IMG/VR virus record: IMGVR_UViG_2645728091_000017 | Location: 1 to 23,397 of that record | Direction: 5' to 3' (one strand) | Source: a virus | Taxonomy: Duplodnaviria > Heunggongvirae > Uroviricota > Caudoviricetes | Length of the DNA stretch: 23,397 bases | Part shown: piece after piece, positions 17,797 to 23,397 of the stretch | Layout: each line of letters opens with the position of its first letter | Position numbering within the stretch: the stretch's first letter is position 1 | Notes under the pieces: model-generated | The model's database searches: none | What the model saw: only the letters and a program-made list of their open reading frames with translations | What the model was told of the DNA's origin: nothing | Translations under genes and position numbers: made by a program

Positions 17797-18600
17797 TTAC
17801 AGGAAATTAAATTTACCCGCTTTTTCTGAAATCTTACGCCCCGGTGTACGGGTGGATTTATTACCCAGATCGTTAAAACGTTTAACGATATCTTTTGCAT
17901 TATCACGAATAGCCGCAAATTCTTCGGTATCGACCACTTCCGCAATGGTATCCACATCACCCTGAACATCATTCAGCTGATTTTCAATTTTGGCCACACG
18001 GCCTTCCAGTTCGTTTACCGCGTTGGCCAGCGCCTGTAACTTATCATCACCCTGCGCGGCATCATCAGGCGGCGTTTCATCTTCAAACTTTGGCTTAATA
18101 CCAAACAGTTTCTGCCAGTTCTTCATTCTTGCTTCCTGTTTAATTTTTCCATCACGGGAAATTACACAGCTGTAATATCCCTGCTTTGTTAATTTATTGC
18201 GCCGACTACTAAAGCGCAGCCGTGTGGTGCCAACGCTAGCAGGTGTATCTGCTACCGCCAGCCCTTTCAGGTAAGTACGTCCGCTACCACGCCAGTTCTC
18301 ATCCGGTTCAATCGAGAAGAACAGGAGCTGATCTTCATGGTTGGCGAAAATTAAACGCATATTCGGGCAAAGGCTGACATAAAGCCGCGCCAGTCCGTCA
18401 TCGCCATCATGCCAGGTGGCCTCCAGCACCTCCCCAAAATTACCGCAATCATCCTCGTGTTCTGGCCAGATCAAAGCGACATAGTGGTTATAGTCATAGG
18501 TTTCCCCCATATCGATAATCCACTGGCGTTTAATTTCTCTGCCGTCAACGGTATCCCCTTCGGTAGCAACACACAGCCAGTCAGTTTTTAAATGCGACAT
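17797..18600 (-). CDS. O: Capsid scaffolding protein, P2 gpO-like
   Basis: 267 aa; N-terminal VATEGDTVDGREI motif resembles the P2 O N-terminus; coiled-coil acidic C-terminal half. Confidence 0.85.
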   Translation of the reverse strand: MSHLKTDWLCVATEGDTVDGREIKRQWIIDMGETYDYNHYVALIWPEHEDDCGNFGEVLEATWHDGDDGLARLYVSLCPNMRLIFANHEDQLLFFSIEPDENWRGSGRTYLKGLAVADTPASVGTTRLRFSSRRNKLTKQGYYSCVISRDGKIKQEARMKNWQKLFGIKPKFEDETPPDDAAQGDDKLQALANAVNELEGRVAKIENQLNDVQGDVDTIAEVVDTEEFAAIRDNAKDIVKRFNDLGNKSTRTPGRKISEKAGKFNFL

Positions 18601-18761
18601 ATCCCCCCTGATTTATTCACCGACGCTGCAAATCAATTATTGCCAAATAAAACCACCACCGCATCACGCTTTATTCTGAACAGTTCGGTTATCACGTATT
18701 ACCGAACAGACGCGAATTAACACCACCGTTTTTTCATAACAGCCACGGCATAATTATCCGC
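18601..18761. promoter_or_regulatory. Divergent late promoter region between O and P, with a 7-bp perfect dyad GTTCGGT-N11-ACCGAAC at 18683..18707
   Basis: 161-bp intergenic region between divergently transcribed O and P, as in P2 where divergent late promoters sit. The dyad is read directly from the sequence; its function as an activator site is inferred. Confidence 0.4.
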
Positions 18762-20478
18762 ATGGCTAAATACTCAGAAGAACTAAAAGGCGTTGTCCGC
18801 GCACTTTATTTGCGCCGCTATACGCCAAAAGAAATTGCATCAGAACTAAATCTGCCGAATGCGCGGATCGTTTACTACTGGGCTGAGAAATACAGCTGGG
18901 CTGATTTACTCAGTTTTGAAAGCACAGAGGAGGCAATTGAACGTCGCTACCAGCTGCTGGCCAGCCGCGATAATAAAACCGATCTAGACCTCAAAGAAAT
19001 GGACATGCTGATTGCCCACGCCACAAAGCTACGTGCTCAAAGCAATAAGCATAAAGAAAAGATGGCCAGCGGCCAGAGTAACGGGCAGGCAGCTGCGCGC
19101 GACAGCAACAGCGATGAACCGCGCCCCAAACGCAAAAACAGGAAAAACGATATTTCTTCTCTGACTCAGGCGGATTTTGACACCTGGGCGGAAGAACATC
19201 TTTTTGAATACCAGAAACACCTGCGCAGGAACATCGGCCAGCAGGTCAGGAACATCCTTAAAAGCCGCCAGATCGGTGCCACCTGGTACTTTGCATTTGA
19301 AGCCTTTGAAAACGCGGTCATGACAGGCGATCCGCAAATCTTCCTGTCTGCCTCCAAAGTCCAGGCGGAATACTTCCGGTCTTACATCGTCAACATTGCA
19401 GAACAGTATTTTGGCATCACGCTGACCGGCAACCCGATCCGCCTCAGCAACGGCGCTGAACTGCGTTTTCTCTCAACCAACAAAAACACGGCACAGTCCT
19501 ACAGTGGCCACCTGTACTGTGACGAATATTTCTGGGTGCCTAACTTCGCCAGGCTTAACGAAGTGGCCAGCGCAATGGCCACCCATGACAAATGGCGTAC
19601 CACCTACTTTTCAACGCCCTCAGCCAAAACGCACCAGGCTTACCCGTTCTGGACGGGTGAAGAATGGAAACAGGGCAGCAAAAAACGCGCGGCCGCCCAG
19701 TTCCCGTCCTTTGATGAAATGCGTAACGGCGGGCGGCTTCAACCTGGCCAACATCGAGAAGCTGCGCAACCGCTACAACACCGCCACCTTCAACATGCTC
19801 TATATGTGCGTGTTCGTAGACAGCAAGGATTCCGTATTCAGCTTTTCAGACCTGGAAGCCTGCGGCGTGGAGGTGGATACCTGGCAGGATCACAATCCGG
19901 ACGCTGCGCGGCCATTTGGTGACAGGCCAGTATGGGGAGGATTTGACCCGGCACGCAGCGGCGATTTGTCGTGTTTTGTGATTATTGCCCCGCCGATGTA
20001 CGCCGCAGAGAAATTCCGCGTTCTGAAGGTCATTAACTGGAAGGGCATGAACTTCCGCTATCAGGCCAGGCAGATCGAACTCCTGTTTAAAAAATACAAC
20101 TTCACCTATCTGGGAGTGGACGTTACCGGTATTGGCCAGGGTGTTTTTGACAACATCCAGCATTTTGCCATGCGCGTGGCCGTCGCCATTCGTTACGACA
20201 TGAACACAAAAAATCAGCTGGTACTGAAAGCGGCGGACGTGGTGGAAAGTCAGCGTATTGAATGGGACAAGAACCTGAAAGAGATCCCGGCCAGCTTTAT
20301 GGCTGTACGCCGCACCACCACGCAAAGCGGTAACGCCATGACATTTGTCGCTGACCGCAGCCAGGACACTGGCCACGCGGAGGCGTTCTGGGCAATTACC
20401 CACGCCCTGCATAACGAACCACTCAACTACGAAAACAAACCGAAATCCCGCTGGGGTGTAAGGAAAGAGGCTGCATGA
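18762..20478 (+). pseudogene. P: Terminase large (ATPase) subunit, P2 gpP-like, interrupted by a +1 frameshift
   Basis: N-terminal ORF (18762..19922) is terminase-like up to ...SFDEMRNG, then reads a nonsense tail. The downstream ORF (19504..20478) becomes terminase-like from GFNLANIEKLRNRY. Junction is at GGCGGGCGGC (19728..19737); removing one G restores a single reading frame of about 570 aa. Confidence 0.8.
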
Positions 20479-20530
20479 GTAAAAAAACCGCTTCGTTAAG
20501 CGCAACCCGCGCGGCGATAAGTCCAAAAAA

Positions 20531-21535
20531 ATGAGCATCATCACATTCGGCAAACCGGAACCTGTCCTGACCACCGGCACGGATTACCGCGACATCTGGT
20601 ACGACAATGCCGCAGATCACTTTACCCAGCCGATTGACCGGCTGGCACTGGCACAGCTTATCAATCTGAATGGTCAGCATGGCGGCATCATCCACGCCCG
20701 GAAAAATATGATTGTGTCTGATTATATGGGCGGTGGCCTGACTTACGACCAGCTGGAAGCCGCAGCGTTTGACTATACAACCTTCGGGGATATTGCGATT
20801 GGCAAAATCCGCAACGGCTGGGGGGATGTGATTGCCCTGGAACCTTTACCCGGCCTGTATATTCGCCGCCGTAAAGTCAGGGACAACGCCACAGACCAGC
20901 CCGGCGATTATGTGGTGTTACAGGATGGTGAACCGCAGGTATGGCCGCAGGAAGATATCATTTTTATCAAGATGTACGACCCGCAGCAGCATATCTACGG
21001 GCTGCCAGACTATATCGGTGGCGTACACTCGGCATTGCTTAACAGTGAAGCCGTGATTTTCCGCCGCCGCTACTACCACAACGGCGCTCATACTGGCGGC
21101 ATTCTCTATACACGCGATCCCAGCATGACGGATGAAATGGAAGAAGAAATTGAACAGCAGCTGCGTGACAGCAAAGGTATCGGCAACTTCTCGACCATTC
21201 TGGTGAACATACCTGGCGGGGATGGGGATGCAATCAAGTTCATTGAAATGGGGGATATCTCTGCAAAAGATGAATTTGCCAACATCAAAAACATCAGCGC
21301 ACAGGACATTCTCAACGCACACCGCTTTCCCGCTGGGTTGGCCGGAATTGTCCCGCAGAACACCGCTGGCCTGGGGGATGTTGAAAAGGCGGAAAGGATT
21401 TACAAGAAAAGCGAAATAGCACCTATTCAGCGCCGATTTATGACTGCCGTGAACAACGATCCCGAAATACCGAAACGTCTGCACCTTCACTTTGATTTAA
21501 GTTACACAGAATCAACGGATAAGGATGCGGCATGA
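20531..21535 (+). CDS. Q: Portal protein, P2 gpQ-like
   Basis: 334 aa directly downstream of P on the same strand; size and composition match P2-family portal proteins. Confidence 0.85.
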   Translation: MSIITFGKPEPVLTTGTDYRDIWYDNAADHFTQPIDRLALAQLINLNGQHGGIIHARKNMIVSDYMGGGLTYDQLEAAAFDYTTFGDIAIGKIRNGWGDVIALEPLPGLYIRRRKVRDNATDQPGDYVVLQDGEPQVWPQEDIIFIKMYDPQQHIYGLPDYIGGVHSALLNSEAVIFRRRYYHNGAHTGGILYTRDPSMTDEMEEEIEQQLRDSKGIGNFSTILVNIPGGDGDAIKFIEMGDISAKDEFANIKNISAQDILNAHRFPAGLAGIVPQNTAGLGDVEKAERIYKKSEIAPIQRRFMTAVNNDPEIPKRLHLHFDLSYTESTDKDAA

Positions 21536-21585
21536 GGCGAAAAAGGCTAAAATCCAAGCATCATTTAACAGCTGGAGCATGGAAT

Positions 21586-21855
21586 ATGCGAGTTCTGAAA
21601 ATCGAATGCCCGGAATGCGGCTCAAAGGCTGTTATTCGTAAAACAAACCGGAAGCACCGGCAGATTGCGGATATTTACTGCGCCTGTTCAGATGTGGAGT
21701 GTGGCCATACGTTTGTTATGAATCTGACGTTCTCCCACACTCTCAGCCCCAGCGCGAAAACAGGTGATGCGATGGTTCAAGTCCTACTTAACAACTTATC
21801 ACCGTCTCAAAAACAGATGGCACTGGATTTACTGAAAGCCACACCCGCGGCGTGA
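21586..21855 (+). CDS. ogr: Ogr/Delta-family zinc-finger late-gene transcriptional activator
   Basis: MRVLKIECPECG...YCACSDVECGHTF gives the Cys arrangement typical of P2 Ogr / P4 Delta; GGAG 8 nt upstream. An alternative upstream start at 21532 overlaps the Q stop (ATGA) with AAGGA upstream. Confidence 0.75.
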   Translation: MRVLKIECPECGSKAVIRKTNRKHRQIADIYCACSDVECGHTFVMNLTFSHTLSPSAKTGDAMVQVLLNNLSPSQKQMALDLLKATPAA

Positions 21856-22005
21856 GGATATCTCCTGTTTGAGTCATCACTTATGCACAGAATGCTCTTT
21901 CTAGACCCATGACAGTGATCTCTGATATCTTTTCATTATAAGATCAGTGCGTTAAATTTTTTGCATTATATTATTACCTAAAATTGGTGCAGGAGATCTC
22001 CTAGA
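21856..22005 (+). promoter_or_regulatory. AT-rich intergenic region upstream of the cargo gene, bracketed by GGATATCTCCT (21856..21866) and the palindrome AGGAGATCTCCT (21991..22002)
   Basis: Sharp drop in GC after the ogr stop. Sigma70-like hexamers (TTGCAT at 21961, TAAAAT at 21979) are present but with non-canonical spacing, so the promoter call is tentative. Confidence 0.35.
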
Positions 22006-23043
22006 ATGTTTGGTTCAAAGCTTGTAACTAAACTGTGGGAAACCACAGCAGAAAAAGGTATTGGTGCTTTATGTAAGCCCTGGCAAATGCGTAGAGAGGG
22101 AGTTGCCAGTTTAGAAATGGAAAGAAAAAAAATGTTAGTTCTGGCTCAAACAGAGATGGATGTCGAGAACATAAAAAGCGGAAAAGCCATCGTTTCGTTA
22201 AATGATCTAAACAATCCCAAATTGATTTCATTAGAAAATAAACAAGAGTATGATAATTCAGGTTCAATGGAGCCTTACATAGATTTCGATAACTTAAAAA
22301 ACGCAGTAAGTACTCAACTCATTGCAAATGAAGTTCAAAAAGAAATAAACATTGCCAAGTCATTATTTGTTGCTGAAGAAATACTTTCTGTTGATCAGTC
22401 TGAGCCTACTGCTGAAAATATCGAAAATGATTGGTTGCTAAGGTGGAGAGATAGTGCTGCGACAAGTAGTTCTGAGAAGCTACAGGATTTATGGGGAAGA
22501 ATACTTGCAGGTGAACTAAAAAGCCCGGGGTCGTATTCATTAAGAACTGTTGATTTCATCAAAAACCTGACACAAAAAGAAGCAAATAAAATACAAAAAC
22601 TATTCTCTTTCCTCTTTCTTGATAGAATTATCAAGGGGGAAAAAGGTAGTTCTAAATTCGACAATGAATACTTAGATAATGAACTGAACTATAATTTTTT
22701 ATCTGAGATGCAGTCACTCGGAATCATTGCTGGGGTTGAGTCAATGGGATTAGCCTCAACTTTCAAGTCTCTTAGTGAAGAAACCTTTTTTTATTATCAT
22801 ATGTATAATGATAAAGTAATGCAGATTAAACATGACGATCCAGAGAAAGAACTTAAACTAAGGGTTTTAATTCTAACGCCACTTGGCCATGAGTTAAAAA
22901 GTTTATGCCCTGCTACAATTGATAGCATTTATCTCAATCATGTTATTGATGCGATTAAATCATTAGATTTTAAAGTTATCATTGGTGATTGCATACGTAA
23001 AGAAAATGGGGAAATATACTCTAAAAATGAAGTAGAAGTTTAA
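22006..23043 (+). CDS. AT-rich cargo protein of unknown function, 345 aa; candidate single-gene anti-phage defence or exclusion protein
   Basis: Long ORF in markedly AT-rich DNA between the ogr-like gene and a hairpin terminator. AGGAG 8 nt before the ATG. Contains NDWLLRWRDSAATSSSEKLQDLWGRILAGELKSPGSYSLRTVDFIKNLTQKEANKIQKLF, which I recall as DUF2806-like (unverified). Not a virion, lysis or replication gene. Confidence 0.7.
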   Translation: MFGSKLVTKLWETTAEKGIGALCKPWQMRREGVASLEMERKKMLVLAQTEMDVENIKSGKAIVSLNDLNNPKLISLENKQEYDNSGSMEPYIDFDNLKNAVSTQLIANEVQKEINIAKSLFVAEEILSVDQSEPTAENIENDWLLRWRDSAATSSSEKLQDLWGRILAGELKSPGSYSLRTVDFIKNLTQKEANKIQKLFSFLFLDRIIKGEKGSSKFDNEYLDNELNYNFLSEMQSLGIIAGVESMGLASTFKSLSEETFFYYHMYNDKVMQIKHDDPEKELKLRVLILTPLGHELKSLCPATIDSIYLNHVIDAIKSLDFKVIIGDCIRKENGEIYSKNEVEV

Positions 23044-23063
23044 AAACGTAAAAAATCATATCC

Positions 23064-23095
23064 CCCTCACTTTTATCAAAATAAAGTGAGGGTTT
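23064..23095. terminator. Hairpin terminator between convergent genes (possibly bidirectional)
   Basis: Perfect 10-bp stem CCCTCACTTT / AAAGTGAGGG (23064..23073 and 23083..23092) with a 9-nt loop, followed by TTT on the plus strand. Confidence 0.5.
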
Positions 23096-23193
23096 AAGAG
23101 ATATAGATGAATTTATAGTCAACTTACTATTAATCATCTTAAACACTATAACATTCGGCACCTTACAACTGAGATTATAGTATTGTCAATGAG

Positions 23194-23397
23194 TTAACAT
23201 TCCCCATCAGATACTGGAAAGGCCCCTGACCTTGTTTTTTTTAAATCTTTTCTAAGATCGTGTCGCATTTCTCCTGCAATCTCACCAATCCAGGCCAAAG
23301 CGATTGTTTTCTCGCGCTGGTCACTTTCGTACACATGGGCAATTTTGGCCAATAACTCAATGCGCTCCAGCTGTGCCGACGCTTCCAAAAGATCCAT
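23194..23397 (-). CDS. C-terminal fragment of a minus-strand gene continuing beyond the window (unknown function)
   Basis: ORF open to the window edge, ending ...PVSDGEC at 23194; convergent with the cargo gene. No family recognised. Confidence 0.3.
   Translation of the reverse strand: MDLLEASAQLERIELLAKIAHVYESDQREKTIALAWIGEIAGEMRHDLRKDLKKTRSGAFPVSDGEC

Follow-up and report, generated by a model that had tools for sequence, protein, structure and literature searches.

Judging by its sequence, the open reading frame at 21532-21855 (+ strand, 107 aa) of the 23,397-nt stretch of DNA analyzed here, hereafter the window, encodes an Ogr/Delta-family zinc-finger protein of a P2-family prophage. Our preferred reading, to which we assign a probability of about 0.65, is that this protein is a late activator expressed by two routes, namely from a promoter of its own and by read-through from an activator-dependent late promoter upstream of the terminase and portal genes (P and Q homologues).

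The Ogr-like protein and the placement of its gene

The features of the Ogr-like protein considered here are the following:

21532-21855, + strand: long Ogr-like frame, 107 aa, which would be made by coupling to portal translation
21586-21855, + strand: short Ogr-like form, 89 aa, beginning MRVLKIECPEC
21604-21744, + strand: zinc-finger domain, followed by a conserved FSHTLSPSAKT motif and a helical tail

The 107-aa frame matches the Pfam profile PF04606 (Ogr_Delta) with an E-value of 9.2e-20 and 70.8 bits, for a Pfam cutoff of 26.3 bits, and the profile is fully covered (positions 1-47 of 47, at residues 25-71). Ogr_Delta is the only profile above its own Pfam threshold, by a margin of 44 bits, and the protein also matches phrog_603, a 'transcriptional regulator' family, with an E-value of 1e-43. 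Counted from the translation, the cysteines of the 89-aa form are C8-X2-C11-X22-C34-X4-C39, with an extra one at position 32; this spacing is exactly CX2CX22CX4C, the cysteine motif of Ogr/Delta activators (PMC3931495). The first-pass annotation of this DNA had called the gene Ogr/Delta-type and had left that assignment to a homology search, which, together with the exact cysteine motif, bears it out. P2 Ogr (72 aa) and 186 B, members of the same family and carriers of the same motif, activate late promoters lacking a -35 element via an upstream dyad (PMC3931495, PMC3152322). The window protein has about 35 additional C-terminal residues when compared to P2 Ogr. Members of the family are expected to bind zinc and the dyad and to activate transcription via the alpha subunit of RNA polymerase. 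A sequence search of the PDB returned no match to the Ogr-like protein, with no solved structure for any relative, and an AlphaFold model built on a 19-sequence alignment reached a pLDDT of 50 and was unusable. The surrounding genes are of P2 type, with Pfam matches to Phage_cap_P2, Phage_GPO, a gpP-like terminase and a portal protein, in addition to a scaffold gene.

It had also been noted that the zinc-finger gene follows Q directly, which holds in the window, and this placement had been set against that in P2. Comparison with related prophages shows that it is not unusual: among related loci spanning more than 20 enterobacterial genera, 145 of 162 have a portal gene ending no more than about 100 nt ahead of their ogr homologue, and the portal-then-ogr layout recurs in Vibrio phage K139, Aeromonas phage phiO18P and Haemophilus phage HP1. 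An ogr-like gene behind the portal gene has been described for K139 and Smhb1 (PMC8537503). On this synteny, the portal-proximal ogr is the standard layout in a large branch of the P2 family; it is already known and not novel. The value of the observation is mainly one of annotation, 'ogr after portal' being normal in a widespread enterobacterial group of P2-family prophages.

By nucleotide identity, the window represents an ESSI-2-like prophage (genus Quadragintavirus, family Peduoviridae). From the end of the terminase gene across the portal gene and into ogr, it shares 86-88% identity with three phages of this genus, ESSI2_ev129, ev040 and ev015 (through ogr for ev129, to mid-ogr for ev040 and ev015), and its identity to an E. 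coli prophage whose product PGAP names Ogr/Delta-like zinc finger protein is 94.8%. The ESSI-2-like phages (Cronobacter ESSI-2 and Escherichia ESSI2_ev129, ev040 and ev015) and the E. coli prophage encoding WP_032246131.1 have this gene at the corresponding position, with 91-94% identity between the proteins, and the ESSI-2-like order is terminase, portal, ogr, then a small ORF in convergent orientation and the gene for the replication endonuclease. The latter lies beyond the window end; its position downstream of ogr is seen in L001 and L002, two related prophages seen end to end. Unlike the ESSI-2-like phages, the window carries a 1.4-kb DUF2806 island after ogr, and in it the terminase gene is broken and the portal gene frameshifted at its 5' end.

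More distant homologues also lie between portal and replication genes, namely K139 Orf13, Kappa kp19, phiO18P gp19 and those of HP2, HP1 and Salinivibrio SMHB1. Their identity to the window protein is 39-56% by tblastn (46-52% in the alignment for K139 and phiO18P), and the K139 and phiO18P proteins share with it the FSHTLSPSA[KR]T motif and the C-terminal tail. The K139 homologue is annotated with a putative promoter of its own, P13. Neither of these two phages has the overlap of portal stop and ogr start described below: in K139, orf14 lies between the portal and the ogr-like gene, and in phiO18P a 66-nt gap follows the portal gene. Moreover, both carry a CTGT-N8-ACAG SOS-box-like site upstream, which is absent in the window. 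Homologues are also found in P4-like satellite loci (L143, L159 and L137; 55-62% identical by tblastn, and 53-54% in the alignment for L143 and L159), where they adjoin an alpha-type primase, with no portal gene and no N-terminal extension. The delta protein of P4 itself, which falls in the same Pfam family, is a tandem double finger.

Start signals at the portal/ogr junction

Both starts of the Ogr-like frame are accompanied by sequence elements at the end of the portal gene and just behind it:

20475-21535, + strand: portal gene (Q homologue), Pfam Phage_portal PF04860, E 3e-18
21521-21525, + strand: Shine-Dalgarno (SD)-like element AAGGA, within the final codons of the portal gene and 6 nt ahead of ATG 21532
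21525-21553, + strand: candidate sigma-70-type ogr promoter, with a weak -35 ATGCGG (21525-21530), a 17-nt spacer and -10 TAAAAT (21548-21553)
21574-21577, + strand: GGAG, SD for the internal start, eight nt upstream of ATG 21586

The upstream in-frame start proposed in the first-pass annotation, said to overlap the Q stop, is indeed present: ATG 21532-21534 overlaps the portal TGA 21533-21535 as ATGA. Of 89 distinct junctions, 81 carry a start codon at the portal stop or next to it, as ATGA, TAATG or TGATG overlaps or as other nearby starts, and this start is kept although the last portal codon varies. The 18-codon extension that it opens contains an in-frame stop in none of 21 diverged lineages, as compared to 11 and 8 lineages in the other two frames and to a mean of 9.6 (minimum 3) in 2000 shuffling trials. 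Among the extension-bearing lineages, the spacing is 29, 32 or 38 nt, the differences always being multiples of three. A G-rich element occupies the AAGGA position in 20 of the 21 lineages, the exception being the one from Providencia that has no upstream start. Moreover, a consensus promoter and terminator scan of 18400-23397 detected no terminator between Q and ogr, the terminator-like matches inside the portal and ogr genes being on the wrong strand, and RNA folding revealed no stable hairpin at the junction (z-score +0.34). Since the upstream start is conserved and its frame is kept open in diverged lineages, these data argue for translational coupling of portal and ogr.

The peptide sequence of the extension is poorly conserved across lineages, so that the 107-aa form may have no function of its own. 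Variability is flat over codon positions in the extension, whereas in the gene body it is confined to third positions. We also considered -1 slippage on A AAA AAG, in the A-run of the extension, and rejected it: this heptamer fits the reading frame of neither portal nor ogr, and in the window the run has only five A's.

Conservation is also observed at the elements preceding the internal start. Of 91 distinct junctions, 87 have TAAAAT unchanged and the remaining four a one-base variant of it, and the hexamer is invariant at all three codon positions, whereas gene-body third positions vary freely. The hexamer 17 nt upstream of it has the consensus GTGAAA across lineages; that of the window, ATGCGG, matches TTGACA at two of six positions, and it was because of this weak -35 that the consensus scan of 18400-23397, which called nothing at the Q/ogr junction, missed the site. 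The G-rich/GTGA element is compatible with a -35 role as well as with that of an SD sequence, and the two are not separable in silico. No late-type dyad was found upstream of the ogr TAAAAT, and the candidate promoter is consequently not of the late class. At the GGAG position, the lineages keep a purine-rich element even when the residues that it encodes differ. In alignment A1, M19-R20-V21 of the long form do not vary, MRV or MRI being the N-terminus of the homologues in K139, phiO18P and the P4-like satellites, which have no extension. In addition, the Providencia loci L152 and L153 retain both promoter hexamers while their extension frame is closed, by the TAA within the TAAAAT hexamer itself, so that TAAAAT, SD and internal ATG are all kept without an upstream ORF. 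We read the conserved TAAAAT, GGAG and ATG 21586 as a putative own promoter and internal start for an 89-aa protein, with transcription predicted to start near 21560, downstream of ATG 21532.

It had been proposed that ogr may be coupled to the portal gene. The conserved overlap, the open frame and the lack of a terminator speak in favor of this, but the conserved promoter and internal-start signals make coupling at most one of two routes. Dual starts would also explain the two lengths under which the Ogr-like protein appears in databases: the ESSI2_ev129 record annotates the 89-aa form, while PGAP and most gene callers pick a form of 103-108 aa, the 107-aa form being PGAP annotation WP_032246131.1.

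The late promoter region and the two proposed routes

A candidate site of action for the activator was found between the divergent O and P genes, in the following region:

18636-18641, - strand: AATAAT, -10-like hexamer of a leftward late promoter (PO analogue), 42 nt from one dyad arm
18684-18706, strandless: dyad TTCGGTTATCACGTATTACCGAA, a perfect match to TTCGG-N13-CCGAA
18749-18754, + strand: CATAAT, -10-like hexamer of a rightward late promoter (PP analogue), proposed to drive P, Q and, by read-through, ogr
18762-20478, + strand: terminase large subunit gene (P homologue), with Pfam Terminase_6N, Terminase_5 and Terminase_6C matches split over two ORFs

TTCGG-N13-CCGAA occurs a single time in the window, as it does in the complete phage genome L001; its arms are conserved across lineages, its spacer is variable and its position is fixed. 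CATAAT lies exactly 42 nt from the dyad arm, GCATAAT being present in nearly all lineages, with no evident -35 element and with the P ATG (18762) only 7 nt downstream; from symmetry with it, we infer the PO hexamer. The dyad is centered near -66 of the putative late promoters, and dyad and -10 at fixed spacing are conserved from E. coli to Vibrio, K139 showing, as does the window, this architecture between terminase and scaffold genes, with a TTCGG-N14-CCGAA dyad. We regard the dyad as a candidate binding site of the Ogr-like activator, the protein being presumed to bind there. Like P2 late promoters, those proposed here show no evident -35 element and have an upstream dyad, but its sequence and spacing differ, as the P2 site, TGT-N12-ACA, lies at about -55. 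The P2 consensus was rejected as a site in the ESSI-2-like lineage, because its four matches in the window (6.5 expected) are all in genes and none is intergenic. In P4-like satellite loci, TTCGG-N13-CCGAA was not found within the 10 kb examined.

According to our preferred reading, the Ogr-like protein would activate late transcription (head, tail, lysis and packaging genes). Through the first route, the weak sigma-70-type promoter in the Q/ogr junction would start transcripts near 21560, translatable only from GGAG/ATG 21586, and the resulting 89-aa protein would first switch on late transcription by acting at the single O/P dyad, turning on the divergent promoters without -35 elements. Through the second, the rightward P-Q transcript would run into ogr, with no terminator in between, and ribosomes ending portal translation at TGA 21533-21535 could start at ATG 21532, with AAGGA 6 nt upstream, yielding the 107-aa form with its basic, loosely constrained 18-residue extension. 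The outcome would be a positive feedback loop with the same topology as that of P2, where ogr lies at the end of the F operon. Such a topology would not be new: the P2 record has -35/-10 signals for ogr and a 'rho-independent terminator for ogr transcript and F operon', and P2 ogr is, like that of the window, the last gene downstream of a late operon. The two differ in that the P2 gene lies behind tail gene D, next to attP and after an 80-nt gap, whereas window ogr follows the portal gene with an overlapping start.

Each of the two routes could instead be the only one. If ogr were solely an independent gene, with an 89-aa product and its own promoter, ATGA would have no role and late read-through would be negligible. 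The Pfam domain beginning at residue 25 of the long form, the MRV/MRI N-terminus in K139, phiO18P and satellite homologues, the flat codon-position variability and poorly conserved peptide of the extension, the Providencia loci that lack it and the short form in the phage records all agree with this. We nevertheless find it rather unlikely, given an extension free of stops in 21 of 21 lineages (9.6 expected with a stop), a portal stop closely accompanied by a start codon in 81 of 89 junctions despite the variable last portal codon, a conserved SD-like element upstream of ATG 21532 and a Q-ogr interval with no terminator. Conversely, ogr could be just the last cistron of a P-Q operon, with no promoter of its own and solely a coupled 107-aa product, TAAAAT, GGAG and ATG 21586 being mere codons (L-K-S, G and M). 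The conserved overlap and open frame, the 103-108-aa form chosen by PGAP and most gene callers and the absence of a junction promoter from the consensus scan would fit such an arrangement, which we judge improbable all the same: third codon positions of TAAAAT are invariant where those of the gene body vary freely, TAAAAT, SD and ATG persist in Providencia despite the closed frame, an activator needing a self-activated promoter could not start the loop, and the P2 and K139 homologues are annotated with promoters of their own.

A role other than late activation, such as restriction alleviation, antirepression or transposase-like DNA binding by a zinc ribbon, appears very improbable. It could draw on weak, sub-threshold Pfam matches (Lar_restr_allev, Zn_ribbon_ISL3 and others), on some database names of the 'transposase-like' or 'DUF1610' kind, and on an identity to P2 Ogr of only 28% over 39 residues of the finger. 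Against it stand the full-profile match to Ogr_Delta as the only one above threshold, a cysteine spacing exactly that of Ogr, the lack of any second annotated Ogr-type gene in L001 or L002, close homologues in P4-like satellites, in which we infer that a delta-type transactivator is to be expected, and the presence of a conserved, activator-type late promoter region without a -35 element.

Beyond the two routes themselves, a timed isoform switch can be imagined, in which only the 89-aa form would be made early, and the coupled 107-aa form, bearing a basic N-terminal arm, MRRKRLKSKHHLTAGAWN, would appear late and behave differently as an activator. We consider such a switch quite doubtful; no description of a two-isoform Ogr was found in the literature searched. 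If true, the arm might affect, e.g., DNA affinity, promoter choice or stability, and the feedback would be qualitative as well as quantitative. For ESSI-2-like phages, our reading predicts an ogr promoter with its -10 at 21548-21553, a start codon coupled to the portal stop and a single bidirectional TTCGG-N13-CCGAA late control site unlike the P2 consensus. If confirmed, the dual-start design would represent a compact late switch under independent and self-reinforcing control, refining known P2 biology with no new principle.

Condition of the window and its 3' side

The copy of this region in the window has suffered two lesions and an insertion. Comparison with L001 and L002 showed that a 59-nt deletion near 19737, between GGCTT microhomologies, inactivates the terminase gene, with a premature stop at 19922. 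Moreover, the A-run at 20481-20487 has lost one base (A7, as compared to A8 in L002), leaving the ancestral portal start at 20475 out of frame and the gene open only from ATG 20531; in L002, the portal start overlaps the terminase stop. Through polarity, both lesions would lower the expression of what lies downstream, so that the route by read-through and coupling is probably weakened in this window. They probably also leave the prophage defective in packaging.

Two features lie on the 3' side of ogr:

21856-23262, + strand: inserted cargo island, GC 0.33-0.44, with a DUF2806 gene at 22006-23043
23194-23397, - strand: small convergent ORF, 67 aa, phrog_698, which normally abuts the ogr 3' end

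The claim that ogr marks the boundary with a cargo island proved correct, as similarity to 67 related loci ends exactly at the ogr stop (21855/21856) and resumes near 23263. An insertion after ogr is seen in only 7 of 77 related loci, and the DUF2806 protein had no PADLOC or PHROGs match. The first 150 nt after ogr contain no clear terminator in the window (folding z-score -0.76), while in ESSI2_ev129 the terminator CCCCCATTACTGGGGGTTTTGTTTT directly follows the ogr stop. Upstream of the small convergent ORF, just past the window end, L001 and L002 carry a CTGT-N8-ACAG SOS-box. Regarding the cos site, no convincing match was obtained; between the small ORF and gene A of L001 lies GTGCTTTTTCCTGCC, which we take to resemble the complement of the P2 cohesive end, with roughly 11-12 of 19 positions matching by hand.

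Identity and position of the ogr gene

In the prophage window, open reading frames and Pfam matches place the head genes, which are of P2 type, on the minus strand, and the terminase and portal genes on the plus strand. The first-pass annotation had proposed that a zinc-finger gene of the Ogr/Delta type lies straight after the portal gene Q, with an upstream in-frame start overlapping the Q stop. Both observations were confirmed; the ogr ATG (21532-21534) overlaps the portal TGA (21533-21535) in an ATGA.

16713-17735, minus strand: major capsid gene (Pfam Phage_cap_P2, E 2e-98)
17797-18600, minus strand: scaffold gene O (Pfam Phage_GPO)
21532-21855, plus strand: long form of ogr (107 aa), directly behind the portal ORF ending at 21535

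Family membership holds as well: the ogr reading frame is intact, its product covers the entire Pfam Ogr_Delta profile (E 9.2e-20; 70.8 bits, cutoff 26.3), and its cysteines are arranged as CX2CX22CX4C, exactly the spacing that defines the Ogr family (PMC3931495). A second in-frame ATG at 21586, preceded by GGAG (21574-21577), would give an 89-aa protein starting seven residues ahead of the finger. PGAP labels the 107-aa form 'Ogr/Delta-like zinc finger protein', and the record of Escherichia phage ESSI2_ev129 carries the 89-aa form.

The region is 86-88% identical to phages ESSI2_ev129, ev040 and ev015 (Peduoviridae, genus Quadragintavirus), and 94.8% identical to a prophage adjoining mntS in two E. 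coli genomes; a relative was found in 30 of 5426 complete E. coli genomes. The ev129 genome runs from tail and head genes (minus strand) through terminase, portal, a 'transcriptional regulator' (the 89-aa form), a small convergent ORF and the replication endonuclease to a 186-like immunity region and the integrase. Moreover, a survey of 80 viral contigs and 80 GTDB species genome loci, encoding relatives of 50-98% identity, showed by tblastn that 145 of 162 loci have a portal homologue on the same strand whose end precedes the short-form ATG by 45-102 nt (mostly 54 nt). These 145 represent over 20 genera, among them Escherichia, Xenorhabdus, Yersinia, Morganella and Providencia; the remaining loci are either P4-like satellites or other phage arrangements adjoining gene A. 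The order terminase, portal, Ogr-like gene is also that of Vibrio phage K139 (Orf13, annotated 'zinc-finger protein', with putative promoter P13), Aeromonas phiO18P and Haemophilus HP1. Because all of these share the layout, the position behind the portal gene is a known, ancient alternative to that in P2 and 186, and the synteny comparison shows it not to be unusual; the literature already describes it for K139 and Smhb1 (PMC8537503). The gene was correctly spotted, but it is an ordinary feature: its family and its conserved position were both known, and public records already annotate it.

In HP1 (L164 2959-3216, NC_001697), the Ogr-like ORF between Q and terminator T31 is missing from the record annotation and seems to be broken by a frameshift; the homologue is intact in HP2. 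Just upstream of the portal-adjacent gene, K139 (L163 2938-2953) and phiO18P (L165 2932-2947) carry perfect CTGT-N8-ACAG SOS-box-like sites, CTGTACAAAAACACAG and CTGTATAAAAACACAG respectively, a hint that the late activator is under LexA control in these phages; the corresponding position upstream of ogr in the window has no such site.

In the P4-like satellites, the Ogr-like gene adjoins an alpha-type primase and an integrase. Copies in Pectobacterium (L143 4995-5354), Kosakonia (L159 5004-5276) and Yersinia (L137 5019-5366) share 55-62% identity with the protein of the window by tblastn. L143 and L159 have a Toprim/DUF927 primase upstream (Pfam) and a P4-type integrase downstream (Pfam-confirmed in L143), and L137 has a similar primase-like N-terminus. 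These satellites presumably exploit the ESSI-2-like helper lineage.

Overlapping start signals at the portal-ogr junction

Among 89 distinct junctions, the start at the portal stop is ATGA in 63, TAATG or TGATG in 10, and a GTG or TTG in that position in 6, with another nearby start in 2, and it is kept despite a variable last portal codon (GCA, AAA, GAA, GTA and others). In 20 of 21 diverged lineages the upstream ATG follows, at a distance of 4-9 nt, a G-rich element resembling a Shine-Dalgarno sequence (AAGGA, 21521-21525, in the window). In the segment from the hexamer TAAAAT to the short-form ATG, 21 lineages with less than 70% identity have no stop in the Ogr frame, versus stops in 11 and 8 lineages in the other two frames; composition-matched shuffles gave a mean of 9.6 lineages with a stop, the lowest count over 2000 trials being 3. 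The spacing across this segment is 29, 32 or 38 nt, so that lineages differ by whole codons, except in Providencia (36 nt), where a TAA inside the hexamer itself shuts the Ogr frame.

The signals for the short form overlap those for the long form and are conserved too. Inside the extension, 87 of 91 distinct junctions carry an exact TAAAAT (21548-21553) and the remaining 4 depart from it by one base. This hexamer is unchanging at all three codon positions; the consensus hexamer 17 nt upstream of it is GTGAAA. The gene body varies freely at third positions and not at first and second, and variability in the extension is flat (summed 5.4, 4.5 and 6.7 for positions 1, 2 and 3). GGAG and the start ATG-CGx-GTx (M19-R20-V21) are conserved, and MRV or MRI is the N-terminus of homologues in K139, phiO18P and the satellites. 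Providencia loci lack the upstream start and have a closed frame, yet retain GTGAAA-17-TAAAAT, GGAG and the ATG.

The suggested coupling of ogr to the portal gene therefore stands in part: 81 of 89 junctions have a start at or beside the portal stop and the frame is open in 21 of 21 lineages, but the short-form start signals are equally a conserved feature. In our reading of these sequences, the 89-aa protein would be the universal product, with its own promoter embedded in the junction, and most portal-adjacent lineages would also keep a translatable, portal-coupled extension of 18 codons whose peptide sequence hardly matters. Comparative evidence for this dual-start junction, a predicted portal-coupled start overlapping a predicted internal promoter, is a modest addition.

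Candidate late promoter and possible read-through into ogr

No P2 consensus (TGT-N12-ACA) occurs in the intergenic DNA of the window. The O/P intergenic region holds these elements:

18684-18706: dyad TTCGG-N13-CCGAA, single perfect match
18749-18754: -10-like CATAAT towards P, 42 nt from the dyad
18636-18641: -10-like AATAAT towards O, 42 nt from the dyad

The dyad arms are conserved among lineages and the spacer is variable, both conserved hexamers lie at exactly this distance, and there is no second copy of the dyad in the window or the whole ev129 genome. K139 has the same design (TTCGG-N14-CCGAA, 43 nt, then TATGAT). Promoters that depend on Ogr are expected to look like this, with a dyad upstream and the -35 element lacking (PMC3152322), but the dyad differs from that of P2 in sequence and spacing; we infer that the Ogr-like protein would bind it. 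With its single dyad and K139-like layout, 18636-18762 is a candidate late promoter region, symmetric and bidirectional. Only 7 nt separate CATAAT from the P start codon, so the terminase mRNA would be nearly leaderless.

Terminator scanning and RNA folding found no terminator and no significant RNA structure at the Q-ogr junction, and in ev129 a canonical hairpin and U-tract follow the ogr stop. It is therefore plausible that the late P-Q transcript reads through into ogr, giving the positive feedback put forward initially. Late co-transcription of ogr with FETUD was reportedly described by Birkeland et al. in 1991. The P2 RefSeq record gives ogr its own -35 and -10 signals, located between D and ogr, and annotates a 'rho-independent terminator for ogr transcript and F operon'; given this, read-through feedback would be no new principle.

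State of this copy and its cargo

Relative to ev129 and a related E. coli prophage (L002), the terminase gene (18762-20478) lacks 59 nt between GGCTT microhomologies (19729-19745), a deletion that splits the large subunit gene into ORFs 18762-19922 and 19504-20478. In addition, the portal 5' A-run (20481-20487) is A7 versus A8 in L002, so that the ancestral start at 20475, overlapping the terminase stop, is out of frame and ATG 20531 is the sole open start. Both changes are unique to the window among about 160 related loci, and A7 may be either a genuine mutation or an artefact of sequencing a homopolymer. Provided that the sequence is correct, the prophage would be packaging-defective, and polarity would lower Q and ogr expression from the late promoter.

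The proposal that ogr marks the boundary with a cargo island is confirmed by the loss of similarity to 67 loci at 21855/21856 and its return near 23263. A small convergent ORF lies -14 to +52 nt from the ogr stop in 70 of 77 loci, and the other 7, the window among them, have a 0.9-1.4 kb insertion at the ogr 3' side. The island (GC 33-37%) encodes a DUF2806 protein (22006-23043, E 1e-25) with no match in PADLOC or PHROG. The 120-nt leader that separates the ogr stop from the start of this gene lies between inverted repeats AGGATATCTCCTG and CAGGAGATCTCCT. The small convergent ORF (23194-23397, minus strand; 67 aa, phrog_698, no Pfam match) is preceded, just past the window end, by a LexA-box-like AACTGTATATGCATACAGTA (L002 23021-23040; ev129, L001, about 20655-20675), and may, by analogy with 186 Tum, be an SOS-induced antirepressor.

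Between the small terminase and head-completion genes, an 82-aa His-rich ORF (15753-15998, minus strand) has GAH(T/S)HS(V/A) repeats and a Pfam Phage_fiber repeat (E 1.5e-10); its ev129 counterpart is annotated 'tail fiber protein'. At the tail-distal end, the low-GC ORF 1-717 matches phrog_1962 (glycosyltransferase, moron category, E 6e-81) and is probably a second cargo gene, possibly with a role in O-antigen modification.
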